The notes beneath the pieces are model-generated. The model ran no database searches, was not told where the DNA came from, and saw nothing but the letters and a program-made list of their open reading frames with translations. 64,000 nt of DNA from an uncultured Lachnospiraceae bacterium (lineage in GTDB: Bacteria; Bacillota; Clostridia; Lachnospirales; Lachnospiraceae): positions 7,961-71,960 of the forward strand of contig UQLY01000013.1 in assembly GCA_900542015.1 (NCBI GenBank). The letters are read 5' to 3'. Below are positions 3,239 to 34,599 of this stretch, piece by piece. Position 1 is the first letter of the stretch. Every line of letters begins with the position of its first letter. The translations under genes were made by a program, and so were the position numbers.

Positions 3239-4600
3239 ATGGCAGCAGAGGAACAGGTAATCAAAAGAATAATGCCCCATAGCGTAGAGGCGGAGCAGTC
3301 TGTCATCGGCTCCATGATGATCGACCGGGATGCGATTATTACGGCGTCGGAAATGCTTGTGGCGGAGGATTTCTACGGTAAGCAGTTCGGGACGCTTTTT
3401 GAGGCGATTGTGGAGCTTCAGGAGAGCGACGGAGTTGTGGACATTGTGACGCTTCAGGATAAGCTGAATGAAAAAGGCGTTCCCATGGAGATTAACAATG
3501 TGGAATATCTGGGAAATTTGATTACGGCAGTCCCGACCTCTGCAAATATTAAACAGTACTGCCAGATTGTTTCGGAGAAGTCTTTGCTGCGGAAATTGAT
3601 ACGGCTCAACGAGGATATCGCCAATGCCTGTTATATGGGCAGAGAAGATACGGACGTTATCCTGGAAGAAACGGAGAAAAAGATTTTTTCTCTGGTACAA
3701 AAGAGAAATACGAGGGACTACATACCGATCCGGGACATTGTCATGGAGGCAATGAATAAGATCGAAAAGGCGTCTCAGGCGGGAGGCGCGGTTACGGGTA
3801 TTCCCACGGGCTTTTTGGATCTGGATTATAAGCTTGCGGGGCTGCAGCCCTCGGATCTGGTGCTTGTGGCGGCGAGACCCTCCATGGGTAAAACGGCTTT
3901 TGTATTGAATATCGCCCAGCACGTGGCGTTTAAACAGAATTTGACGGTAGCGATTTTCAGCCTGGAAATGTCGGAAGTGCAGTTGGTAAACCGTCTGTTT
4001 TCTTTGGAATCCAATGTCAATTCGGGAAATATCAGAACCGGTAATCTGTCTGACGACGATTGGGATAAGCTGATTGAGACGGCGGGAGTTGTGGGCAATT
4101 CCAACCTGATTATCGACGCGACGCCGGGAATCAGTATTTCGGAGCTGCGGAGTAAGTGCAGAAAATATAAGATGGAAAAAGACCTGAAACTGATCATTAT
4201 CGACTACCTGCAGTTGATGAGCGGAAGCGGGCGTTCGGCGGCGGAGTCCAGGCAGCAGGAGATTTCGGAGATTTCCCGTTCCTTAAAGGCGCTTGCGAGG
4301 GAGCTAAACGTGCCGGTAATTGCCTTGTCGCAGTTGAGCCGTGCCGTGGAACAGAGACCGGATAAAAGACCGATGCTGTCGGATCTGCGTGAGTCCGGAG
4401 CCATTGAGCAGGACGCCGACGTGGTCATGTTTATTTACAGGGACGATTATTATAATAAAGATACGCAGGAAATGGGCGTTGCGGAGATCAATATCGCAAA
4501 GCAGAGAAACGGTCCCATTGGCGTCGTTAAGCTTGCATGGCTGCCGGATTATACTAAGTTTGCAAACCTGGAGCGCCAGAGCGGGCATTATGACTCGTGA
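3239..4600 (+). CDS. dnaB: Replicative DNA helicase (DnaB family)
   Basis: 453-aa ORF with an N-terminal DnaB domain and a Walker A motif (ARPSMGKTAF). The RecA-like C-terminal domain includes IIDYLQLM and LSQLSRAVEQR. Confidence 0.95.
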   Translation: MAAEEQVIKRIMPHSVEAEQSVIGSMMIDRDAIITASEMLVAEDFYGKQFGTLFEAIVELQESDGVVDIVTLQDKLNEKGVPMEINNVEYLGNLITAVPTSANIKQYCQIVSEKSLLRKLIRLNEDIANACYMGREDTDVILEETEKKIFSLVQKRNTRDYIPIRDIVMEAMNKIEKASQAGGAVTGIPTGFLDLDYKLAGLQPSDLVLVAARPSMGKTAFVLNIAQHVAFKQNLTVAIFSLEMSEVQLVNRLFSLESNVNSGNIRTGNLSDDDWDKLIETAGVVGNSNLIIDATPGISISELRSKCRKYKMEKDLKLIIIDYLQLMSGSGRSAAESRQQEISEISRSLKALARELNVPVIALSQLSRAVEQRPDKRPMLSDLRESGAIEQDADVVMFIYRDDYYNKDTQEMGVAEINIAKQRNGPIGVVKLAWLPDYTKFANLERQSGHYDS

Positions 4601-4639
4601 GAACCATAACTTGACAGAAAAACTGAAAAAGACTAAAAA

Positions 4640-4672
4640 GGGCTGCACATGAAAGGAATTTCATGTGCAGCC
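4640..4672. terminator. Bidirectional hairpin terminator between dnaB and the ferredoxin gene
   Basis: Perfect hairpin gggctgcacatgaaa-ggaa-tttcatgtgcagcc, flanked by an A-run on one side and a T-run on the other. It sits between convergent genes. Confidence 0.7.
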
Positions 4673-4687
4673 TTTATGGTTGATTGA

Positions 4688-6483: not shown

Positions 6484-8523
6484 TTATTTGTTTAAGTCGA
6501 TCTCGATGTCGCCTGCAAATACCTGATCCTCTTTACCAAGAGCTCCGGGGATGATGGTGAAGGTATTGGAGATACCGTCCTGAGCATCATTGAAAGGAAG
6601 CTTGGATACAGAAGATAAGGAAGCTACTGCACCATGAGTATCACGTCCGTGCATCGGGTTAGCACCGGGAGCGAAAGGCTGACCTTTTCTACGTCCGTCA
6701 GGTGTGTTACCTGTTGCTTTACCATAAGTTACGTTAGAAGTAATGGTAAGGATGGATGTTGTAGGAACACCGTTTCTGTAGGTATGATGTCTTCTGATCG
6801 CTGTCATGAACTTGTGTACGATATCCTGAGCGATTTCGTCTACGCGGTCATCATCATTACCGTATTTAGGGAAGTCTCCGGTTGTCTTGAAGTCAACGAT
6901 AATGCCGTCTTCGTCACGGATAACTTCAACTTTTGCATATTTGATAGCAGATAAGGAGTCAGCTACGATGGACAGACCTGCAACACCTGTTGCAAAGTAA
7001 CGTTTTACGTCTCTGTCATGTAAAGCCATCTGAGCTCTTTCATAGCAGTATTTATCGTGCATATAGTGGATGATGTTCAGAGTATTTACATATACGTCTG
7101 CCTGCCATTCCATCATATCCATGAATTTATCCATTACGTCGTCATAATCAAGTACGTCGCCGGTAACAGGACGGTATTTGGGACCAACCTGTTTCTTGGT
7201 AACTTCGTCGATACCGCCGTTCAAAGCGTACAGTAAGCATTTCGCTAAGTTAGCACGAGCTCCGAAGAACTGCATTTCTTTACCGATTACCATGGAGGAT
7301 ACGCAGCATGCGATACCGTAGTCATCGCCATGAGTTACTCTCATCAGGTCATCGTTTTCGTACTGGATGGAAGAAGTCTTAATGGACATCTTCGCACAGA
7401 ATTTCTTCCAGCCTTCCGGTAATCTTGTGGACCAGAGAACCGTTAAGTTGGGTTCAGGAGAAGGTCCTAAGTTGTTTAATGTATTTAAGTAACGGAAGGA
7501 CATCTTTGTTACTAACGGACGTCCGTCTACGCCGACACCGCCGAGGGACTCTGTAACCCATACAGGATCGCCTGCGAAGATCTGGTTGTATTCAGGTGTA
7601 CGAGCGAATTTAACGCAACGCAATTTCATGATGAAGTGGTCAACAAATTCCTGAATCTGTTCTTCTGTGAAAGTACCGTTCTTTAAGTCTCTCTCAGCAT
7701 AGCAGTCAAGGAATGTGGATGTACGTCCGAGGGACATAGCAGCACCGTTCTGCTCTTTTACCGCGCATAAATATCCGAAGTAAGTCCACTGGATAGCTTC
7801 CTGTACGTTGGAAGCGGGTTTGGAAATATCGCAGCCGTAAGAAGCAGCCATTTCCTTCATCATCTTCAGTGCTGTCATCTGTTCGGAAAGCTCTTCACGA
7901 AGACGGATAACGTCATCTGTCATAACGCGTCCTGTGGAAGCCTTCTGTGCTTCTTTGTCCTCGATCAGTCTGTCGATACCGTATAATGCAACACGTCTGT
8001 AGTCGCCGATGATACGTCCGCGTCCGTAAGCATCCGGAAGACCGGTAATGATATGAGAGGAACGACATGCTCTCATTTCAGGGTTGTAAGCATCGAAACA
8101 ACCAGCGTTGTGTGTTTTTCTGTGGGTGGAGAAGAACTCGGAGATTTCGGGATCTACTGTGTAGCCGTTATCTGTACAAGCTTTCTCTGCCATACGGATA
8201 CCGCCGTAAGGCTGCATGGAGCGTTTGAAAGGTTTGTCTGTCTGGAAGCCTACGATAGTCTCTTTGCTCTTATCGAGGTATCCGGGACCGTGGGAAGTGA
8301 TAGTGGAAACAACTTTGGTATCCATATCCAGTACCCCGCCTGCTTCACGTTCCTTTTTCTGTAAGTCAAGCACCATGTTCCATAAATCTTTGGTGTTCTG
8401 TGTAGGTCCTGCCAAGAAGCTCTCGTCTCCTTCGTAAGGAGTGTAGTTTCTCTGGATGAAGTCGCGAACATTGACTTCTTTGTCCCATTTGCCGCCTACA
8501 AAATCTGTCCATTCTGGTCTCAT
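6484..8523 (-). CDS. pflB: Pyruvate formate-lyase catalytic body (residues ~1-680 of PflB), lacking the glycyl-radical C-terminus
   Basis: 679-aa ORF with the PFL active-site CC (GIACCVSSM) and global similarity to E. coli PflB up to ...ALGKED, after which it reads [13 protein letters not shown] and stops. Confidence 0.9.
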
Positions 8524-8813
8524 TTTGAAATAGCCTCCTATAAAAATATAATTTTTTTGAACGGAATTTAACCGTTAAGTCACGCATAAAAACTATGCTC
8601 ATCCCATGCCTTAATTATAGGTTAAAAGAAGTGGCTGCGTCAAGACAAGGGTTGTACTTTTTTATATACAAACCGCTGTAAAATCAAAAGAAATTTATAA
8701 AAATTTACTAAACTTTTAAAAGACGGAGCGAACGTTTCAAAATGGAATATTGATAAAAACACAAGAAGGGGTTATACTATCAAAAAACAATACAAAATAA
8801 GGAGGTCACAGAC

Positions 8814-9005
8814 ATGACAGGAATCACGAAGGACATGACAATCGGAGAGATTATCAGAATAAATGCAGATGTTATTCCCGTGCTGATCAACGCAGGTATG
8901 CACTGTGTGGGATGCCCCTCCGCCCAGGGAGAAACTTTGGAAGAGGCGGCTATGGTACACGGGATGGACGTAGATGATTTGATGACTAAGATTCAGGCAT
9001 TATAA
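8814..9005 (+). CDS. DUF1858 / hybrid-cluster-protein-associated redox disulfide protein (small)
   Basis: 63-aa ORF with MTIGEIIR...[19 protein letters not shown], typical of this family. RBS AAGGAGG. Confidence 0.7.
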
Positions 9006-9099
9006 TCGGTGCACGGATCAGGTGCAAAACATAAAGGTTAAGAACCGGCGTTTGGCAGGAAAGAAGCCAGACGCCGGTTTTTTGCCCTTTTGCTATCCG

Positions 9100-9867
9100 C
9101 TAGACCTCTGCGAGGGATTGCAAAGCGTGATCCAGGCAGATCGGTTCAAAATGTTCTGTCAGGTAAGCGTCCTTTCCGGGGGCGCTTTTTAAATAATATC
9201 CGTATTCGGAAAAAATATTGCATAATTTATTAAAATTTTCGGCGGATACATGCTCGCTGCTGATGATCAGCCGGTACTCGCGGGAAAAGCGGTCTTTATA
9301 AAGAGAGTTGCTTCCCAGGGGAATGTCGGAAACGACATGTGCAAGCCTGATAACATGATCCAAATTTGAAAAACGATATACTCTTGCAGGAGCGGGCTCC
9401 AATTCGGAAACGGACAATTTACCGGGAACAGGTTTATCGCGCCCTTTGTCCGGCAATTTTTCAATCCTGGAAACATCGCTTAATAAGCCGCTTTCCGCAT
9501 TCTGGACTTTCTGGAATAAGTTCATGACTTCATCGGTAATGTCTTCTATATCGGAATCGCCTGCGGCGTCTTCGTGAACGGAAGGCGCAAACTTGGAAAA
9601 ACGGGTATCCAGCTCTTCGGGGTCCTCCACTTTGGTAATCGTCAAAACAATACACTCCGCGCTGATAGGCACGGCTTCAATCATTAACGGGATGTCGTCC
9701 GCTTCAAAGCCGCATTCCCAGGACGCCTGTTCCATCATATCCTTAAAAAGCAACTTAGCCTTTTCGCTGCCATAGGCAAGTTCGCTTATCTTGAGCTCTC
9801 TGTCTGCCAGATCGTTTTTGGTTAAAGTGCAACGTATTTGATTTTCGTTGATTCTTTCGATTTTCAT
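9100..9867 (-). CDS. mecA: Adapter protein MecA (ClpC adaptor)
   Basis: 255-aa ORF MKIERINENQIRCTLTKNDLADRELKISELAYGSEKAKLLFKDMMEQA... with MecA family N-terminal and C-terminal domains. Confidence 0.8.
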   Translation of the reverse strand: MKIERINENQIRCTLTKNDLADRELKISELAYGSEKAKLLFKDMMEQASWECGFEADDIPLMIEAVPISAECIVLTITKVEDPEELDTRFSKFAPSVHEDAAGDSDIEDITDEVMNLFQKVQNAESGLLSDVSRIEKLPDKGRDKPVPGKLSVSELEPAPARVYRFSNLDHVIRLAHVVSDIPLGSNSLYKDRFSREYRLIISSEHVSAENFNKLCNIFSEYGYYLKSAPGKDAYLTEHFEPICLDHALQSLAEV

Positions 9868-10404
9868 CTTCTCACATCCTTACCGGCAACTGAAAAAATT
9901 GTAAAAGTATCTTATACTTATTAGTTTATTAAGTCAATAGAAGCGAGTGCCAGTTTTATAAATTTTAATAAAATTATCACAAACATCTTGTCAAATTTTA
10001 AGAAATCACATATAATAGCCCCACAAGATGCTTCCGGGACAATCTGTAAAGGGAAGGAGGCATACGGATCTTAATTTATCTTAACACAGGAAAGTGAATT
10101 CTTTAAAGCAAATCAAATTCACACTCTAACACCCGACGGGTGGTCTAAGGCTTCGTGCCTGGTCGATGATTGAAATCCAATTAAAATTCAAAGCTAGAAC
10201 GTTATAATCAAATTGTTACAAAGCTGTTTTTACACGTCCCGAGGCATTTCTTGTACGACTCAATTATATTATCGTCATATTCAGGAAAAGTATGATAACA
10301 AAATTTTTGGCAAAAATATATCACGCTCCTTTTGGATACGCTGAAAATAGAGTTTTGACGCTTTTCCGGGCGAAATCCGTCAAGGTTTTGACAGGAGGTA
10401 TTCA

Positions 10405-10623
10405 GTGAACAGAACAGACAGGAAAAAGGCGCAGAAAAAAATCAGATCGGATCTGCGCCAGTCGCTCAAACAGGGAGCACTGTTATATATGGACGGAAAA
10501 CTTGCGGCTCCGTCGCAGATCAGCGACAGCATCGTGCGTGAAAACGGCGGCTATATGGCTGATTACGTCATGGACGAGGACGGGCGCATCTGTGAAATCC
10601 ATTACGACAGAATCAGGATTTGA
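10405..10623 (+). CDS. Small hypothetical protein (72 aa, GTG start)
   Basis: Strong RBS ACAGGAGGT 6 nt upstream of GTG. No recognisable family. Confidence 0.4.
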   Translation: MNRTDRKKAQKKIRSDLRQSLKQGALLYMDGKLAAPSQISDSIVRENGGYMADYVMDEDGRICEIHYDRIRI

Positions 10624-25176: not shown

Positions 25177-25611
25177 AAAATAAAAAAGCGAAAATCTATA
25201 TGTTTTCATAGAAAATACATATTTTCGACATAAAATAAAACCGAAAAAACAGAAACCAAATAGTAGATACAACCAAAACCCCTTCCCAAAATGGGAAAAA
25301 CGGAGACAGCCAGAAAGCAGGAGATTTGCATATTGCCTGATTTTTCAAGCCGTATGTAAAGAAGTGCCGATTTTTCTTACAGAATGCCTCACAACCAGGG
25401 TAATCCTGCCATGGATGGCAGGATTAGGTTCCGTCGTGCATGGATGCACGTTGGAACCGACCCGTCCGGTATTCAATAAATCGCCGCATTCTGTTAGAAA
25501 AATGCACTTCGTACTCCGGCTTGAAAAACCAAGCAATATGCAAATCTCCGTCCGGCATCACTTTTTCCCCATGTATCTACTATTTCCCATACATACAAAG
25601 GAGGACTCACA

Positions 25612-27757: not shown

Positions 27758-28951
27758 ATGGATAAATTAGAGGAGCTTCTTTCGCAAATATTAAATGAAA
27801 ACCTGACGCAGATCGTGATCAGCGGACCTAAGAAAAGCGACGCTGCAAAATCGGAGCATTTTGTCAGGAAAATTCAGATCCGTCCGGTGTTATTAAAGGG
27901 ACAGCTCTTATTTCAGGCGTCAAGCTACACAAAAAAGCAGGTCTTTCATGAAAATCTCTCAAGGCAGCAGGCAATAGACTATATCGCAAAGGCAATGGGA
28001 GATTATAAACAGTTGCAAGCCTATGGAGACGGGATAAAGGCAGACGTGCTGTCCGGGAAAAAGGGCAATCTGTCGATCAAAAGCGAGATAACGCCGCCGG
28101 CGGGCAAGGAAGGGGAAAGCGGGGAGCGAAAGGCGTCTCTGTCCCATAACCGGGAAAAGGAATCGATTCTGCCCAAGGATGAGCCGGTGCCTTTTTTGGT
28201 AGATTTGGGAGTACAGACCAAAGAAGGCAGGATCGTTGCCGGGAAATATGATAAATTCCGCCAGATCAACCGCTTTTTGGAGTTTATCAGGGATATTTTG
28301 CCTGTTCTGCCCAAGGATGAGCCGGTTTCCATTCTGGATTTTGGCTGCGGGAAAAGCTATCTGACCTTTGCCATGTATTATTACCTGAGGATCATGAACG
28401 GGTTGGACGTGGATATTGTAGGGCTGGATTTGAAGGAAGACGTGATTGAAAAATGCAACCGGCTGAAGGAAAGCTATGGATATGACCATCTGCATTTTCT
28501 CGTAGGGGATATCGGACAGTACGAAGGCAAGTCCCGGGTGGATATGGTGGTAACGCTTCATGCCTGCGATACGGCGACGGATTATGCTTTGGCAAAGGCG
28601 GTAAAGTGGAATGCGAAAGTTATTTTGTCCGTTCCCTGCTGTCAGCACGAATTAAACGGACAAATATCCCAGGAGCTGTTGCAGCCGGTATTGAAATACG
28701 GACTTTTGAAGGAACGGATTTCCGCGCTTTTGACGGACGGCATCAGAGCCTCTCTGCTGGAAGAGGCGGGATATGACGTGCAGGTTTTGGAATTTATCGA
28801 TATGGAGCATACGCCCAAAAATATTTTGCTGCGGTGCGTTAAAAATACCCGTATGCGGGCGAAAAACAGCGCGCGGCTTGATGAAATGATTGATTTTTTG
28901 AACGGGAAGCCGACGCTTCAAAAGTTATTGAAAGAACAACAGGGTGAATAA
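27758..28951 (+). CDS. Class I SAM-dependent methyltransferase with N-terminal extension (Methyltransf_32-like)
   Basis: Motif I ILDFGCGKSYL, motif IV-like LHACDTATD, and a conserved CCQHE. The stop overlaps the start of the next gene by 8 nt. Confidence 0.7.
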   Translation: MDKLEELLSQILNENLTQIVISGPKKSDAAKSEHFVRKIQIRPVLLKGQLLFQASSYTKKQVFHENLSRQQAIDYIAKAMGDYKQLQAYGDGIKADVLSGKKGNLSIKSEITPPAGKEGESGERKASLSHNREKESILPKDEPVPFLVDLGVQTKEGRIVAGKYDKFRQINRFLEFIRDILPVLPKDEPVSILDFGCGKSYLTFAMYYYLRIMNGLDVDIVGLDLKEDVIEKCNRLKESYGYDHLHFLVGDIGQYEGKSRVDMVVTLHACDTATDYALAKAVKWNAKVILSVPCCQHELNGQISQELLQPVLKYGLLKERISALLTDGIRASLLEEAGYDVQVLEFIDMEHTPKNILLRCVKNTRMRAKNSARLDEMIDFLNGKPTLQKLLKEQQGE

Positions 28952-31490
28952 GGATATTATGAAAAAGGGATTGATAAAAGGAATTGTCTGTTTCGTAACG
29001 TTTATGGTGTCGCTGTTTGTGATCAGCGCCGTTATGAACAGAGGAAATACGGATATTACCATGGAAATGAGCGCGGCGTCCTATCCGCTTGTGTATATCA
29101 ATTATGAAGGAGAACATATTAACTGCCTGCACGGATACAGTAACGAAATGGACGTTTCGTTTATGCGGGATACGGTAACGCCTTTGGGAGAGGACCGGAA
29201 AATCTCCCTGTATATTGATAAATTTAACAGCGATATTGCCTCTCTGTCTTTTGAGGTGCGCTCCACGGACGGAGAGAGGCTGATTGAAAATTCCGAGATC
29301 TTTAATTATAAGGAAAAGGACGCGGGAATTTCCGCGGACGTGGTTATTAAGGATCTGATCGAACAGGACACGGAATATGAGTTTATCGTTCTTGTGGAGA
29401 CGGCGGAAGGAAAGACGCTGCGGTATTATACCCGCATTATTCAAAGAAGCGAAAATCATGCGGGAGAAGAAATCCGTTTTGTACAGGATTTCCATACGAA
29501 AACCTTTGACAAAGATGCGGCAAGGGATTTGACAAAATATCTGGAGACCGATGAAACCGGGGATAACACCTCGTACAGTTATGTGAATATCCACAGCAGT
29601 TTTTCCCAGCTTACCTGGGGGGATTTGAAGGTGAAAAAAATCTCGGAACCGCAGATTTACGTCACGGAATTTTTTTCACAGACGATGCGTGTGAAAATGA
29701 CCTATTTTGTATCGGTAACGACCGAAGAGGGCGAAAAAAGATGCAGAGTGGAGGAATTTTACAGACTCCGTTACGGAACGCAGAGAATTTATCTGTTGGA
29801 TTTTGAGAGAACCATGAACGAAGTGTTTGAAATGGATATAGAGGCGTTTAATAAAAATAAGCTGGATCTGGGTATCCGAAGCGCTGATGTGGAAATGATG
29901 GAGAGCGAGGATGGCGGTGTTTTTGCCTTTGTATCGGAGAACAGACTGTTTTGCTACAATTCCACAAGCAACCGATTCGCGCAGCTGTTTGGTTTTTATG
30001 AAAAGGATCACGAGGACGAAAGGACCTTTTATGACCAGAATGATATTCGCATTTTGAACGTGGACGAGACGGGAAACGTACAGTTTATGGTATACGGTTA
30101 TATGAACCGCGGCACCCACGAGGGAAATATGGGCATTGCGGTCTATTTCTATAACAGCGTGCTCAATACCATTGAGGAGGAAGTGTTTATTCCTTATGAC
30201 AAATCCTATGCGGTGCTTGCCAGCGATTTGCAGCAACTGACTTATCTTAACAGCAGCAACGAGCTGTTCCTCTATCTGGGCGGCAGTATCTTTTGCGTGC
30301 ACCTCGAGGAAAACAGCTACGAGACGGTCGCGGAAAACCTTCCTCAGGGGAGTCTCAAGGTATCCCAATCGAACCGGATGGCGGTATGGCCGGAAGGAGA
30401 GGATTTAAACAGGAGCACAAGTCTGGCGTTGATGAATTTAAACAGCCGCAGTATTTCTACGGTAGAGGCGGGAAGCGGAAATTATATCCGCCCCCTGGGA
30501 TTTATGGAGGAAGATTTGATTTACGGGCTTGTCAGGGCGTCGGATATCTATACGGACAATGCGGGCAGCATTTTAATGCCGATGTTTCGCATCAGTATTT
30601 GCAGCGGTTCGGACAATACGGTTACGATGAACTATGAAAAGTCCGGAATTTATGTGACGGATATCAGTATTGAGGACAATCAGATCAATCTGGAACGGGT
30701 TAGCAGAGATGCGGAGAGCGGGACCTATGTTTCCGTCGTTTCGGATCAGATCATGAGTGCGGAAACCGGATTAGCGGGTGAAAACGTGGTGGAATTGGCG
30801 GCGACCGAGGCTAGGGAAACGATTGTGCAGATTGCGGCAAAGGGAACCATTGAGACAAAGTCACTGAAATTTTTGACGCCGAAAGAGGTCATGTATGAAG
30901 GCGGGCATGAGATGGTGTTCGGTTATCCTGAGCAGACGGAGCATAAGTATTATATTTACGGGGCGGACGGAATAACCGGAGTGTATTCCAGTCCCTCGGA
31001 AGCGATTATCTCGGCGGACGAAACGGCGGGAACAGTCATCAACGAGGCGGGCGATTATGTGTGGGTCAAAGGAAACCGCGTAACCCGCAATCAGATAATG
31101 AAGATCGAAGGAACCGCAGCGGATGAGGAAAATTCCTCCCTTGCCGTATGCCTGAATACGATGCTTGGGGCGGAAGGCATTACCCGCAACAGCCAGTATA
31201 TGCTGGACCAGGGGCAATCCGTACTCTCCATTCTGGAAGAGCAGATGCCGGAAGCGGAAATACTGGATTTAAGCGGATGCAGCCTCGATTCCGTACTCTA
31301 CTACGTCAACAGGGACATTCCGGTCATGGCGATCTTAAAGGATAAAAGCGCGGTGCTGATCGTAGGCTTTAACGAACTGAATACGGTCATTATGGACCCT
31401 GCAACCGGCACGATTTATAAAAAGGGAATGAATGATTCGACGCAGTGGTTCCAGGAGAATGGGAATCAGTTTATAGCGTATATACGATAA
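28944..31490 (+). CDS. Large membrane-anchored protein (848 aa) with C-terminal peptidase-C39-like domain
   Basis: N-terminal TM helix (GIVCFVTFMVSLFVISAV), ~700 aa of extracytoplasmic sequence, and a C-terminal ~130 aa with a C39-like Cys (SSLAVCLNTMLGAEG). Translationally coupled to the methyltransferase. Confidence 0.6.
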   Translation: MNKDIMKKGLIKGIVCFVTFMVSLFVISAVMNRGNTDITMEMSAASYPLVYINYEGEHINCLHGYSNEMDVSFMRDTVTPLGEDRKISLYIDKFNSDIASLSFEVRSTDGERLIENSEIFNYKEKDAGISADVVIKDLIEQDTEYEFIVLVETAEGKTLRYYTRIIQRSENHAGEEIRFVQDFHTKTFDKDAARDLTKYLETDETGDNTSYSYVNIHSSFSQLTWGDLKVKKISEPQIYVTEFFSQTMRVKMTYFVSVTTEEGEKRCRVEEFYRLRYGTQRIYLLDFERTMNEVFEMDIEAFNKNKLDLGIRSADVEMMESEDGGVFAFVSENRLFCYNSTSNRFAQLFGFYEKDHEDERTFYDQNDIRILNVDETGNVQFMVYGYMNRGTHEGNMGIAVYFYNSVLNTIEEEVFIPYDKSYAVLASDLQQLTYLNSSNELFLYLGGSIFCVHLEENSYETVAENLPQGSLKVSQSNRMAVWPEGEDLNRSTSLALMNLNSRSISTVEAGSGNYIRPLGFMEEDLIYGLVRASDIYTDNAGSILMPMFRISICSGSDNTVTMNYEKSGIYVTDISIEDNQINLERVSRDAESGTYVSVVSDQIMSAETGLAGENVVELAATEARETIVQIAAKGTIETKSLKFLTPKEVMYEGGHEMVFGYPEQTEHKYYIYGADGITGVYSSPSEAIISADETAGTVINEAGDYVWVKGNRVTRNQIMKIEGTAADEENSSLAVCLNTMLGAEGITRNSQYMLDQGQSVLSILEEQMPEAEILDLSGCSLDSVLYYVNRDIPVMAILKDKSAVLIVGFNELNTVIMDPATGTIYKKGMNDSTQWFQENGNQFIAYIR

Positions 31491-31519: not shown

Positions 31520-31690
31520 GGCTGTCAGCGGCTGGGAAACGAACAAAGCAGAGTATCACGGAAACACGCTTGCGCTCTGCAAGGACGCAGCGGGCGCATA
31601 AGATTGCAAAAGACGCAATCTAAGCGCCGGCGTCCTTGCAAAGGTTTCCTTTGATACTCTGCTTTGTTCGTTTCCCAGCCGCTGACAGCC
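31520..31690. repeat. 171-bp imperfect palindrome (39-bp perfect outer arms), related to the MITE-like repeats B and C
   Basis: Arms ggctgtcagcggctgggaaacgaacaaagcagagtatca (31520-31558) and its exact reverse complement (31652-31690). Inner imperfect pairing down to a central gattgc-aaaa-gacgcaatc hairpin. It carries the cacggaaacacgctt and aaaggtttcctttgat motifs shared with repeats B and C, and is followed by a T-run. Confidence 0.85.
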
Positions 31691-31778
31691 TGTTTTTCGG
31701 ACCTTTTTAATATGATGTATATTAGCTGATGGCATACCGGCTGATTGTATATTGACTGTATCGGGGAAGTATGATTCA

Positions 31779-31954
31779 GGGAGCCTCCGCATTTATATTG
31801 ATCAATTTATATATCGATCAAAGGAAACCTTTATAAAAACACCGGTACTTAATCCGCGTATTTTGCGGATTTATGTACCGCTGCGTTTTTATAGAGCGAA
31901 AGCGTGTTTCCGTGAGCGATATATAAATTGATCAATATAAATGCGGAGGCTCCT
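31779..31954. repeat. MITE-like palindromic repeat, copy B (~175 bp, ~38-bp terminal inverted repeats)
   Basis: Left end gagcctccgcatttatattgatcaatttatatatcg is the exact reverse complement of the right end. The internal core (atcgatcaaaggaaacctttataaaaacaccggtacttaatccgcgtattttgcggatttatgtaccgctgcgtttttata) is shared with copy C and has a nested hairpin plus U-run. Confidence 0.85.
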
Positions 31955-31968
31955 ACATTACTTCAATT

Positions 31969-32457
31969 TTAAGTACGGAAGAGGATATGGCGGTATTTTT
32001 GGAGGAGGAATAAAAGGAGCATTCCCAGGATTCCGCAGGCTAGTACTTCACCGATGCCGACGGTCAGCATGAAGAAGGGAATGCCGCCGGGGATTCCGTA
32101 AGCATAATGCAGGACAAAAGGGATAATGAGGATATTTGACAAAATAGGGGGAACGGGAGCGAGCCACTTCCATTTACGGAGAGCATAGGTTCCCAGGGCG
32201 CCGAGCAGCGTGGCAAGGCTGCCAAATATAATATCCCAGATGGGCGCGCCGGTCATAAAATTGCTCAGTAAACAGCCTATAAAAAGACCGGGAATGGCGG
32301 CAGGCGTAAAAAACGGTAAGATGGTAAGAGCTTCGGAAATTCGGAATTGAATGGCGCCGTTTGCCAGTTGAAAGACATCAATGGCGAGGGTAAGCACCAC
32401 ATAGATTGCGGCGATAACCGCTGACTGCGTGATAAAGTAAGCTTTTTTGTTTTTCAT
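31969..32457 (-). CDS. queT: Queuosine-precursor transporter QueT (ECF S-component-like)
   Basis: 162-aa multi-TM protein MKNKKAYFITQSAVIAAIYVVLT..., typical of the QueT family. Confidence 0.8.
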   Translation of the reverse strand: MKNKKAYFITQSAVIAAIYVVLTLAIDVFQLANGAIQFRISEALTILPFFTPAAIPGLFIGCLLSNFMTGAPIWDIIFGSLATLLGALGTYALRKWKWLAPVPPILSNILIIPFVLHYAYGIPGGIPFFMLTVGIGEVLACGILGMLLLFLLQKYRHILFRT

Positions 32458-32525
32458 ATTTTTTTCTCCTTTAGTTTTGTTTTTCAGTCCGCGCCGCTAT
32501 GCGCGAACCGAGGTCAGGAAGGTCT
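32458..32525 (-). promoter_or_regulatory. Candidate preQ1-I riboswitch in the queT 5' leader
   Basis: Minus-strand RNA ...GGUUCGCGCAUAGCGGCGCGGACUGAAAAACAAAACUAAAGGAGaaaaaaauAUG has a 5-bp GC hairpin followed by an A-rich tail ending CUAAAGGAG. This resembles the preQ1-I tail AAAAAACUAAGGA, which sequesters the SD. queT is a classic preQ1-riboswitch target, but the loop is shorter than consensus. Confidence 0.35.
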
Positions 32526-32758
32526 CGAACTGACCGTTTTTCCATGAGAGCGTTTTGCAGCTCTATGGTTTTGCAACGTTGCCAGTGTAGCATAAAGGGA
32601 GCAAAAATGCAATGATAAAATAATTTGTCGGAGTTTGGCGGGGAATGGCGGTTAAAACCGATTAAATCTTTATAAAACCGGGGGCAAAGCGATTGACTTT
32701 TGCGATTCCGTATTTTACCATGAAACATAATAAGAAGTTTGTGAACGGAGGGAAAAGC

Positions 32759-33169
32759 ATGGATTTTTTAAGTAAGGTATCAGCGAAGGCGGGCGAAACA
32801 TTTCAGACCATAAAGGATAGTGAAGTAACGAAAAAGGCGAAAAACTATGCGGGCATTCCGGGACTGCAGGTGCAGGTCGGCAAGTGCGAGAGTTTGATCA
32901 AGAAAGCATATGAAGAGATCGGCGAAGCGTATTTTAAGGCGCATGAGCACGAGGACGGCGGCGAATACGCGGAGAAGTTCGGGATCATTAAGGAAAATAT
33001 GCAAAAGATCGGTCAGTTGAAAGCCGAGATTGAGGAGAAGAAAAAGGGCGGAGACAATACGACCGAGGCAAAGGAAGGAGACGTCTCCATTGAAAAAGTA
33101 TGTCCGATCTGCGGAAGGACCGTTCCCGACGACGCGGCATTCTGCAGCGTCTGCGGACACCAGTTTTAA
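32759..33169 (+). CDS. Small zinc-ribbon protein (136 aa from ATG 32759)
   Basis: RBS GGAGGGAAAAGC-ATG. C-terminal CPICGRTVPDDAAFCSVCGHQF zinc ribbon. The ORF track's longer version starts at 32693. Confidence 0.6.
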   Translation: MDFLSKVSAKAGETFQTIKDSEVTKKAKNYAGIPGLQVQVGKCESLIKKAYEEIGEAYFKAHEHEDGGEYAEKFGIIKENMQKIGQLKAEIEEKKKGGDNTTEAKEGDVSIEKVCPICGRTVPDDAAFCSVCGHQF

Positions 33170-33253
33170 CCCCAGCGTCCTCTAACAAAGAGCCGGACCA
33201 AGAAAATACAAAAAGGATATAAAAGGATACAAAAAAGGGCTGCCACATTTATA

Positions 33254-33396
33254 ATTTTTGTATCGATCAAAGGAAACCTTTATAAAAACGCCGGTACTTA
33301 ATCCGCGTATTTTGCGGATTTATGTACCGCTGCGTTTTTATACCCCAAGGGCACAAGTAGAGCGCAAGCGTGTTTCCGTGATCGATACAAAAATTG
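33254..33396. repeat. MITE-like palindromic repeat, copy C (~143 bp)
   Basis: An ~85-bp core nearly identical to copy B (1 mismatch), flanked by terminal inverted repeats aatttttgtatcgatcaaaggaaac / gtttccgtgatcgatacaaaaatt. It lies between the convergent zinc-ribbon gene and prs. Confidence 0.85.
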
Positions 33397-33414
33397 ATAA
33401 ACATGACACCCTTT

Positions 33415-34599
33415 TTACACTTCCCCTTTTTTATATCTTGCCAGCAAATTCTGAATCCTGTCGCTGGGATTGAGCAGATCGCTGATGGAAGCGTCATGAT
33501 TGAGCGTGTCGATAATATAGGCGATATATTTGCTCATATCGCAGTCAATGTAATAAGGTCTTTCCAAAAGCTCCGGAGTCTGGTAAATCAGATTGGTGGT
33601 CAGGATATCGTCGATAAAGCCTTCTTCATATGCCTGATCAAATTTCGCAAGTCCGTTTGTAAACAGTCCGAAGGTCGCACAGATGAAAATGCGGTTTGCT
33701 TTGCGCTTCTTTAGCGCCGCCGCGACTTCCAATACGCTTTCGCCGGAAGAGATCATATCGTCCACGACGATAATATCCTTGCCTTCCACGCTGGAGCCCA
33801 GAAATTCATGGGCGACGATGGGATTGCGACCGTCTACAATCTGCGTGTAGTCCCGGCGTTTATAAAACATACCCATATCCAGTCCTAATACGTTGGCGAT
33901 ATAAATAGCACGGCTCATACCGCCTTCATCGGGGCTGACAACCATCATATGATCTGAATCAATCGTCAGATCCCTGACATGGGAAAGAAGCCCTTTGATA
34001 AACTGGTAGGCGGGCTGAACGGTTTCAAAACCGTTTAAGGGAATTGCGTTTTGTACCCGGGCGTCATGAGCGTCAAAGGTAATAATGTTGTCCACGCCCA
34101 TATTGACAAGCTCCTGCAGGGCGATTGCACAGTCAAGAGACTCGCGGGTACTTCTTTTATGCTGCCTGCTTTCATAAAGAAACGGCATAATAACGGTAAT
34201 TCGTCTTGCCTTTCCGCCGACAGCGGCGATAATACGCTTTAAATCCTGGAAATGATCGTCAGGAGACATATGATTGGGATGTCCGCATAGGGAATAGGTC
34301 AAAGAATAGTTTGCTACGTCTACCAACAGATAGAGATCGGTGCCTCTGACCGATTCTAAAATGACGCCTTTTGCTTCGCCGGAACCGAAGCGGGGTACTT
34401 TTGCTTTGATTAAATAGGAATCGCGCTGGTAGCCTTTGAAGGCAAGGCTGTCGCTGTGGGCGTTTTCACGTTCCGTTCTCCAGTCAACCAGATAATTGTT
34501 GACCTTTTCTCCGAGAGCCTTACAGCCTTCCAGAGAGATAATTCCCAAAGAGCCTACGGGAATGGTTTCCAGGTTTCTCATTTCTTCACGTTTGGACAT
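33415..34599 (-). CDS. prs: Ribose-phosphate pyrophosphokinase (PRPP synthetase, long form)
   Basis: 394 aa with the PRPP-binding loop IIVVDDMISSGESV and a typical Prs fold. Confidence 0.9.
   Translation of the reverse strand: MSKREEMRNLETIPVGSLGIISLEGCKALGEKVNNYLVDWRTERENAHSDSLAFKGYQRDSYLIKAKVPRFGSGEAKGVILESVRGTDLYLLVDVANYSLTYSLCGHPNHMSPDDHFQDLKRIIAAVGGKARRITVIMPFLYESRQHKRSTRESLDCAIALQELVNMGVDNIITFDAHDARVQNAIPLNGFETVQPAYQFIKGLLSHVRDLTIDSDHMMVVSPDEGGMSRAIYIANVLGLDMGMFYKRRDYTQIVDGRNPIVAHEFLGSSVEGKDIIVVDDMISSGESVLEVAAALKKRKANRIFICATFGLFTNGLAKFDQAYEEGFIDDILTTNLIYQTPELLERPYYIDCDMSKYIAYIIDTLNHDASISDLLNPSDRIQNLLARYKKGEV

Follow-up and report, generated by a model that had tools for sequence, protein, structure and literature searches.

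Introduction

Bacterial genomes carry few repeat families, and each of the well-studied ones (REP/REPIN, Correia, ERIC and BOX sequences) has informed our understanding of genome plasticity, transcription termination and messenger RNA (mRNA) stability. The named families of stem-loop repeats include Correia/NEMIS, ERIC, RUP, BOX, bcr1 and the EFAR types of Enterococcus. Stem-loop-forming intergenic repeats of bacteria have been surveyed as a general class (PMC2267715), REPINs and REP sequences are mobilised by RAYT transposases (PMC3116915, PMC3337134), and palindrome-associated elements derived from IS200/IS605 insertion sequences rely on single-strand transposition of the HUH type (PMC6006769). 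Here we analyse three palindromic elements, designated A, B and C, in a stretch of 64,000 nucleotides from an uncultured Lachnospiraceae bacterium (GenBank assembly GCA_900542015.1, contig UQLY01000013.1, positions 7,961 to 71,960 of the forward strand), referred to below, at its full length, as the window. The elements lie beside queT and a gene for a zinc-ribbon protein. We consider it reasonably probable that A, B and C were inserted independently of one another and belong to a family of non-autonomous palindromes, dispersed between genes, that spreads as selfish DNA and supplies 3'-end or terminator hairpins, and that this family, judging from the sequences collected, is confined to one group of Lachnospiraceae from gut and rumen.

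Results

Three Copies of One Element in the Window

The three palindromes that the original prediction had placed between positions 31520 and 33396 are present at essentially these coordinates, as seen both in a reading of the region and in a listing of its repeats (Table 1). Each consists of a core of 92-109 nt on the tip of a copy-specific inverted repeat of 33-41 bp. The conserved blocks ATCAAAGGAAACCTTT and AGAGCGNAAGCGTGTTTCCGTGA occur exactly three times each in the window, with about zero occurrences expected by chance, and a covariance model, built from the same 36 distinct copies that were aligned for the analysis of fold and covariation, found only A, B and C there; the next match scored 10.8 bits and lies inside a gene.

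B and C had been described as having a near-identical core in the same orientation, which holds: both are on the plus strand and share 90 nt at 97% identity and a further 47 nt at 87%. Element A, on the other hand, had been thought to carry the same motifs in rearranged order, but its reverse complement aligns collinearly with B and C throughout, and it is the same element, with one architecture, read from the other strand. The fold calculated for A has an energy of -131.9 kcal/mol (z = -18), and in the plus-strand reading the element is followed directly by TGTTTTTC at 31691-31698. In C, the inner parts of the arms are perfect over 17 bp (33253-33269 / 33379-33395), and the element is bracketed by an A-run at 33231-33236 and a T-run at 33413-33417.

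The differences that separate A from B and C are mostly paired, being compensatory in the helices termed P3 and P3b below: TTTATAAAAACGC/GCGTTTTTATA stands against TTTGCAAGGACGC/GCGTCCTTGCA, and ATCCGC/GCGGAT against GATTGC/GCAATC. The internal U-run noted in the original prediction forms one strand of helix P3; A has UCCUUGCA in its place and is altered correspondingly on the opposite strand of the helix, so that what is conserved is the pairing and not the U-tract. A micro-open reading frame across the core was considered and rejected: all three elements keep it open, but A departs from B and C by changes that are non-conservative as protein and compensatory as nucleotides, and no start codon is conserved.

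Table 1. Positions of the repeat elements, their parts and associated features in the window.
Feature	Position	Strand	Description
Element A	31520-31690	minus (family orientation)	full copy; covariance-model score 124 bits
Arms of A	5' arm 31652-31690; 3' arm 31520-31558		39 bp, 100% complementary
Core of A	31559-31651		93 nt
Element B	31780-31953	plus	full copy; covariance-model score 129 bits
Arms of B	31780-31820 and 31913-31953		41 bp, one mismatch (98% complementary)
Core of B	31821-31912		92 nt, GAAA loop
Element C	about 33231-33417	plus	full copy, long-core subfamily; covariance-model score 114 bits
Arms of C	5' arm 33237-33269; 3' arm 33379-33412		imperfect in outer part
Core of C	33270-33378		109 nt
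17-nt insert CCCCAAGGGCACAAGTA	33343-33359	plus	in element C, between helix P3 and the GNRA mini-hairpin
Hairpin without core	4636-4677		19-bp stem, AAAAGGGCTGCACATGAAA-ggaa-TTTCATGTGCAGCCTTTAT
queT	31969-32457	minus	PF06177; flanked host gene, outside the element
Zinc-ribbon protein gene (136 aa)	32759-33169	plus	weak Zn_Ribbon_1 / UPF0547 matches; flanked host gene
Conserved protein gene (843-848 aa)	28944-31490	plus	no Pfam match; adjoins A; syntenic in all relatives

Conserved Fold of the Core

In the alignment of the 36 copies, as in folds of single copies, the element takes the form of a long hairpin, in which the P1 arms are followed by an AA/G internal loop, the helix P2 (GGAAAC/GUUUCC) and a three-way junction at the tip. 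The junction carries two hairpins. The long one (P3 and P3b) ends in a GUAUUUU loop and contains a bulged U and a conserved mismatch, U.U (or U.Y); the other consists of two base pairs under a GNRA loop. The foot of the arm is GC-rich and often reads GGCTGYCGCA, the middle is AT-rich and hypervariable, and a short proximal box (WNTCA / TGANW) adjoins the core; A- and T-runs bracket some copies.

Paired cells accounted for 96.9% of the alignment cells in helices, compared with 85.3% in shuffled alignments, and double-sided changes were found in 29 of 43 pairs, compared with 13 ± 1.8 in the shuffles; when the partners were slid by 1-3 columns, the pairing fell to 33-48%. Since both pairing and double changes exceed these controls, the fold is maintained by compensatory change; the selected molecule could be RNA, single-stranded DNA or a cruciform. 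Helix P2 also covaries in divergent members of the family, where it reads GGGAAC/GUUCCC, AGGAC/GUCCU or GGCGGC/GUUGCC.

Such conservation raises the alternative that the core functions as a structured RNA, which could be a small RNA present in many copies or an element acting in cis in 3' untranslated regions, bound by a protein or folding via a GNRA-receptor contact and needed at many genes, with the arms serving as closing stem and terminator. The strong covariation and the conserved unpaired nucleotides favour it. The loop of the mini-hairpin is of the GNRA type in 35 of the 36 copies (GAAA, GCAA, GAGA or GGAA; the copy L022a has AAAA; L numbers denote collected metagenome loci), and divergent members retain a CUUA/UAYG internal loop with the U.U mismatch and the bulged U, both of which point in the same direction. 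Further support comes from a U.G pair at one P3 position in 9/36 copies and from the folding energies, which favour the sense over the antisense strand by 4.7 kcal/mol in 31/36 copies, in a test made non-independent by the mutual relatedness of the copies. Mismatch counts were tried as a guide to the functional strand and rejected: G.U and A.C mismatches number 29 and 20 in the core, one column being dominant. The arms, however, speak against an RNA: they are perfect Watson-Crick helices in which G.T mismatches (39) are in no excess over A.C mismatches (44), and these changes, mostly transitions, show no strand asymmetry.

Distribution in Lachnospiraceae

A search with a 20-nt word of the core revealed three copies on three contigs of the Lachnospiraceae metagenome-assembled genome (MAG) RGIG9054, obtained from water-deer rectum, together with three chance matches, and a slightly degenerate version of the word revealed 99 stretches of metagenome contigs. 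The covariance model, run over 660 kb of loci selected by the core word, found about 65 sense-strand copies scoring at least 55 bits. The units are 140-190 bp long, clusters of 2-3 copies inside 1 kb are common, and one contig of 400 kb holds at least 8 copies; the hosts seen are contigs of gut and rumen Lachnospiraceae. The insert of element C, 16-17 nt long, is also present in other genomes (L054, L099, L105 and L112); therefore, B and C belong to different subfamilies and did not arise by local duplication. The occurrence of copies on other Lachnospiraceae contigs likewise agrees with the earlier view of a dispersed, non-coding, non-autonomous palindromic family rather than a local duplication.

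As far as searches of Rfam, plasmids, phage and viral sequences and the literature show, this repeat family is undescribed. Over the elements, none of the Rfam 15 families scored at or above its gathering threshold, and at E<=10 there were only generic matches to models of long-hairpin microRNA precursors; we rejected the assignment to a known RNA family or ribozyme. A blastn search of plasmids with element B as the query and a scan of viral contigs with the exact 20-nt core word both returned no match, and a plasmid or phage origin was dismissed. The idea that the arms are spacer-like memories of phages was abandoned as well, because 13 unique arms had no match at E<=1 among 50,697 phage records; arm k-mers occur nowhere else in the compared DNA. 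The literature search found no description of the family.

Two contigs end at the elements: L014 (GCA_900759495.1) stops inside B, and L129 stops 64 nt after the prs gene, just before C. Such ends indicate that the palindromes break short-read assemblies, and scans of MAGs therefore undercount the family.

The queT Locus and Other Insertion Sites in Relatives

A, B and C occupy identical positions in 8 contigs of the same species. Relatives were found through homologues of the adjacent prs gene, with identities of 99, 97, 96, 94, 93 and 88%. The order prs, zinc-ribbon gene, queT and the gene for a protein of about 845 aa is kept, in the same orientation, in all relatives examined, and in several of them the 3' end of queT overlaps that of the 845-aa gene. 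No relative with prs identity of 97% or less has either B or C. The retention of this order without B and C means that queT and the zinc-ribbon gene are ancestral and that the repeats were inserted around them.

The original prediction had listed a mobilisable cassette among its possibilities; in this reading, B and C would bound a composite element able to carry queT, its leader and the zinc-ribbon gene along. Both genes are indeed bracketed by B and C in direct orientation. However, the gene pair, which was looked for as missing at this position in relatives, is present everywhere examined, in the same place and orientation, including the relatives at 88-97% prs identity that have neither B nor C, and B and C come from different subfamilies. 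This synteny refutes the composite cassette, to which we give practically no credence. For the queT locus itself the outcome is thus deflationary: there is no mobile cassette, and the elements do not mobilise queT.

Three relatives with 97% prs identity (L120, L123 and L124) carry orthologues of A at the same site, in the same orientation and with the same derived inner hairpin CTTAGATTGCGTYYTTTGCAATCTTA; the flanks and the arm foot of A are common to the window and L120 only. From this distribution, A is the older insertion and B and C are species-specific, the insertions having occurred at different times.

The family is mobile, and the presence or absence of copies differs between close relatives. 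L115 and L114 have the same prs protein, but only L115 has a divergent member of the family (P2 GGCGGC/GUUGCC), an insertion of 176 bp that lies where the zinc-ribbon gene and queT start in opposite directions (L115 7800-8030 versus L114 7813-7856). L114 keeps a small hairpin with a 20-bp stem made of the outermost parts of the arms, and the next relative, L116, has neither the element nor this hairpin. The arms in L114 and L115 include an inverted copy of about 10 nt of apparent host flank. Most simply, L114 would represent a deletion footprint. Among the collected metagenome loci there were no clean empty sites; only orthologous filled sites and deletion variants were found.

Variants reduced in length were found at several further loci. 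Compared with its orthologue L110, L005 carries an interior deletion of 73 nt, L033 and L044 have one between TTTTTGTA repeats, and mini variants in L054 and L022 consist of P1, the AA/G loop and P2 only. The C site is occupied in relatives by plain hairpins, of which that of L123 keeps P2 and that of L121 keeps CAGATATC...TGATATCTG; L125 has at this site a palindrome without a core, with 25-bp arms and a CA|TG centre. Plain terminator-like hairpins in these genomes may in part be decayed elements. In the window, the foot AAAAGGGCTGCACAT of the hairpin without a core (Table 1) is similar to the arm foot GGGCTGCCRCAT of the family; through this resemblance, it may be either a decayed copy or merely a similar terminator.

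Two loci show larger changes. L075 (4558-4715) matches L079 before the element and L085 beyond it, the switch falling inside the element, which reflects either a rearrangement between copies or a chimeric assembly. In L052, a 236-bp unit is duplicated in tandem (3267-3617), and both units contain a divergent copy (P2 AGGAC/GUCCU); at a distance of 500 bp, at 4094-4209, there is also a canonical copy.

Core Exchange and Mirrored Changes in the Arms

Cores of 92 nt that are identical or differ by 1-2 nt sit on arms that are unrelated and unique among the compared DNA. For core pairs at most 1 nt apart, 75% had an arm distance greater than 0.6 (shuffled arms, 0.87 ± 0.08), and the correlation of arm and core distances was weak (r = 0.19, p about 0.04).

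Core sequences are exchanged between B and C among strains. The window strain has the 17-nt insert and a GCAA loop in C; L127 (99% prs identity) has both in B, its C being without the insert; and in L128 (also 99%) the cores of B and C are identical, with the insert in neither. Single-base variants have also been swapped between B and C among strains. The movement of the insert, the loop and the base variants between the two copies is a signature of ectopic gene conversion confined to the core. This exchange, together with the switch of flanks inside the element in L075, gives some support to the earlier suggestion that the elements are substrates for recombination.

The decoupling of cores and arms could also mean that only the core is mobile. 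A TCA-core-TGA unit of about 100 nt would be copied or would home into long terminator palindromes that were already in place, at their centre, for example by an enzyme that is site-specific or acts on single-stranded DNA, so that the arms would be host terminators. Identical cores in unrelated, locus-unique arms would be expected from it, and the TCA/TGA boundaries are constant. The coreless palindrome of L125 and that of L121, CAGATATC and TGATATCTG included, lie at the orthologous C site, and plain hairpin terminators with stems of 16-19 bp exist in the genome; the lack of target-site duplications, described below, fits as well. However, canonical arms of 34 nt are common to many copies at different loci, so that, at least in this subfamily, the arms travel with the core; L116 is devoid even of the small hairpin of L114, so that at this site the arms came with the element; and the three-part design of the arms and their length of about 40 bp are uniform. 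Loop remnants beside the core, looked for as a sign of insertion into hairpin loops, are not seen, and the arm mismatches are spread evenly along the arms. Core exchange between B and C, moreover, explains identical cores in different arms with no need for core transposition. We therefore regard mobility of the core on its own as rather improbable.

Changes in the arms are mirrored. In L127, compared with the window strain, both arms of B have the same 6-nt deletion and the same AT-to-GC change. At the A site, the window strain and L120 both have 39-bp arms with the foot GGCTG kept, and about 27 bp in the middle are unrelated on both arms. All four orthologues at this site share the inner hairpin and an AGTATCA-type proximal box, and differ in the arm middles in all lineages; in L123 and L124 the boundary pair is flipped and the arms are shorter and without the foot. 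Template switching during replication at inverted repeats creates and repairs stems (PMC8794818) and extends inverted repeats (PMC8604942, PMC13100816, PMC8794818). At the arms of this family, as the mirrored changes suggest, it would keep the two arms perfectly paired while allowing them to diverge fast.

These observations leave some room for a more radical interpretation, which we hold to be doubtful, namely that the family is a new kind of bacterial mobile or self-propagating DNA, recognised by its internal structured core and not by its termini, that keeps generating and replacing bidirectional terminator hairpins genome-wide. A process resembling conversion or homing would place copies of the core, with its three-way junction, GNRA loop and receptor-like CUUA/UAYG loop, in terminator hairpins; alternatively, template switching would let the core make long arms of its own out of the host DNA beside it.

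Gene Context

For 44 copies a gene was called on each side. The flanking genes are convergent for 21 of these copies, tandem for 12 in one orientation and 11 in the other, and divergent for none. Compared with the intergenic regions of the same loci as background, the probability of 0/44 divergent contexts is 3e-4, and that of at least 21/44 convergent contexts is 3e-6. The copies lie 1-100 nt past stop codons and are nearer the stop codon than the next start. All three elements of the window are at convergent gene ends, as had been proposed. The outer 10 bp of the arms have a GC content of 64%, compared with 31% for the remainder; element C combines a GC-rich foot with T-runs on both strands, and A has a T-run on one strand. 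No conventional terminator was predicted in the two intergenic regions of the window.

This position makes a role as terminator or 3'-end hairpin plausible. The terminator idea of the original prediction is thus in keeping with the location after stop codons; T-runs at the 3' foot are present in only 13/45 copies.

The gene context bears on the functional-RNA alternative too. The orientation of the copies relative to the upstream gene is random (12 versus 11 in the tandem contexts), the flanking genes are functionally unrelated, and no sequence passed a promoter scan of the element; a TTGTAT-17-TATAAA motif is no more than a weak match by eye. Copies vary in presence and absence among close relatives and cluster by 2-3 per intergenic region, and frequent interior deletions are tolerated. 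Weighed against the covariation and the conserved loops, these features make a functional RNA an unlikely explanation for the family as a whole.

Mode of Spread

Within 10 kb of the window copies, as judged from Pfam labels, we found no transposase, TnpA included, no integrase and, in the contig sequence searched, no RAYT (Y1/HUH) gene; the claim that no transposase is present accordingly stands. A scan of about 500 kb of flanks, blind to single-copy genes, found no multi-copy open reading frame. Two odd copies, L021 and L100, were inspected as candidates for a cargo-bearing autonomous copy, but they just abut a host gene of 130-142 aa.

The original prediction had labelled the elements as resembling miniature inverted-repeat transposable elements (MITEs), that is, for the classical type, internally deleted insertion sequences of the DDE type moved via their terminal inverted repeats. 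The label is apt in that the elements are small, non-coding, dispersed, multi-copy and intergenic and are flanked by inverted repeats. It fails in that the termini are unconserved among copies and it is the interior that is conserved, and in that no related insertion sequence was seen. Target-site duplications were looked for in 32 copies, and none were found beyond chance: the longest flank repeats are distributed as in randomly paired flanks. The negative plasmid and viral-contig searches, with element B and the 20-nt core word, respectively, also count against it, as does the lack of a multi-copy open reading frame. With neither conserved terminal repeats nor target-site duplications nor a nearby transposase, the family is not a classical MITE, an origin that we find very improbable.

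For the selfish-repeat reading that we favour, a trans-acting function would recognise the internal core rather than the termini, and the element would spread as selfish DNA. It would be tolerated, or even useful, because the arms would serve as a hairpin for 3' ends or for termination in both directions.

Other Features of the Window and Its Relatives

The leader of queT (about 32458-32600, minus strand) contains CGGTCAGTTCGAGACCTTCCTGACC, invariant in all relatives, and a nearly invariant AAAAA(C/T)AAAACTA(A/T)AGGAG. The Rfam PreQ1 model scores 15.8 bits there, the gathering score being 39, and the leader is probably a variant of the preQ1-type riboswitch with a hairpin inserted between the aptamer stem and the A-rich tail; the leader in L120 has an additional insert of about 70 nt. 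In L118, one relative with 88% prs identity, an insertion of 3.4 kb (7278-10415) separates prs from the zinc-ribbon gene; it contains a radical-SAM gene, a DUF5685 gene, two small open reading frames and a helix-turn-helix regulator. The sole Rfam family at gathering score in the window is a full-length TwoAYGGAY RNA (RF01731) at 25354-25517 on the plus strand (93 bits), unrelated to the elements.

Discussion

Several points weigh against the interpretation of the family as a selfish repeat that supplies terminator hairpins. A T-run of at least 4 at the 3' foot is present in 13/45 copies (about 29%; 13% of control windows), and element B has none on either strand, so that many copies would be poor canonical intrinsic terminators. 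A structured tip of 100 nt is odd as a terminator loop, and the core is strictly conserved down to its unpaired bases and the GNRA loop, which suggests a specific RNA or protein-binding function. Neither a mobilising enzyme, nor a parent element, nor a new insertion with clean boundaries was found in the material surveyed. Moreover, the copies were chosen via an exact 20-nt word of the core, which inflates core conservation at those 20 positions, and a few related genomes supply most of them.

The family inverts the usual pattern of conservation, with a constant structured core and long arms that are hypervariable and perfectly paired. It offers a natural system for the maintenance of hairpins by template switching, for ectopic gene conversion and for the birth and decay of terminator hairpins. 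Its carriers are abundant Lachnospiraceae of the human gut. Palindromes that break short-read assemblies and can yield chimeric joins, as at L075, matter for the quality of MAGs and for comparisons between strains.

A comparison with described systems begins with intrinsic terminators of the bidirectional kind. They, like the copies of this family, follow directly after stop codons, mostly between convergent genes, and the foot of their stem is GC-rich; some copies of the family, such as C, are flanked by A- and T-runs. The family differs in having stems of 30-45 bp and a structured tip of about 100 nt, in being repeated and polymorphic, and in the T-run, present in about a third of copies. 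Mutation by template switching at quasipalindromes (PMC8794818, PMC7202029, PMC8604942) fits the mirrored multi-base changes, the perfect arms and the inverted copy of flank in L114 and L115. However, it is a mutational process and not a family of elements, and leaves the conservation of the core and the spread of copies unexplained. Integron attC sites, characterised by RYYYAAC / GTTRRRY outer sites, uniform orientation and an integrase, also differ, since conservation here is central and A is inverted.

The IS200/IS605-derived elements are similar in that they have no obligatory conserved terminal inverted repeats and make no target-site duplication; recognition in the family would likewise use an imperfect hairpin, internal or subterminal, that contains an extrahelical T. 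They have, however, a pair of subterminal hairpins and, on one side, a fixed target of four or five nucleotides, whereas the family has one main hairpin in a symmetric palindrome and no orientation bias (12 versus 11), and TnpA was not among the genes near the window copies.

Stem-loop repeats share with the family a length of 100-200 bp, long stem-loops and a position near stop codons or between convergent genes. Members of this class are often co-transcribed and have proposed effects on termination or mRNA stability. The described families have conserved termini and, usually, target-site duplications, unlike the family found here, which has neither, and no match in sequence or in Rfam connects them to our elements. 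To our knowledge, no family of stem-loop repeats combines a constant three-way-junction core with copy-specific arms.

With REPINs, the family has in common a non-autonomous, extragenic nature, a hairpin formed by the single strand, many copies per genome, an arrangement in doublets or triplets, persistence at orthologous sites between relatives and the compensatory maintenance of the hairpin. A REPIN consists of two short conserved REP units inverted around a variable spacer, and the family reverses this plan, with a conserved centre and variable arms; it has no REP head of the GTAG type and no recurring REP unit of 20-40 nt, and its host group is the Lachnospiraceae rather than the Proteobacteria. 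Altogether, the family is probably best labelled as a new REPIN/MITE-like structured intergenic repeat that provides 3'-end or terminator hairpins. Its closest known kinds are the REPINs and the stem-loop intergenic repeats of other bacteria, from which it is set apart by its constant structured core and its hypervariable arms.

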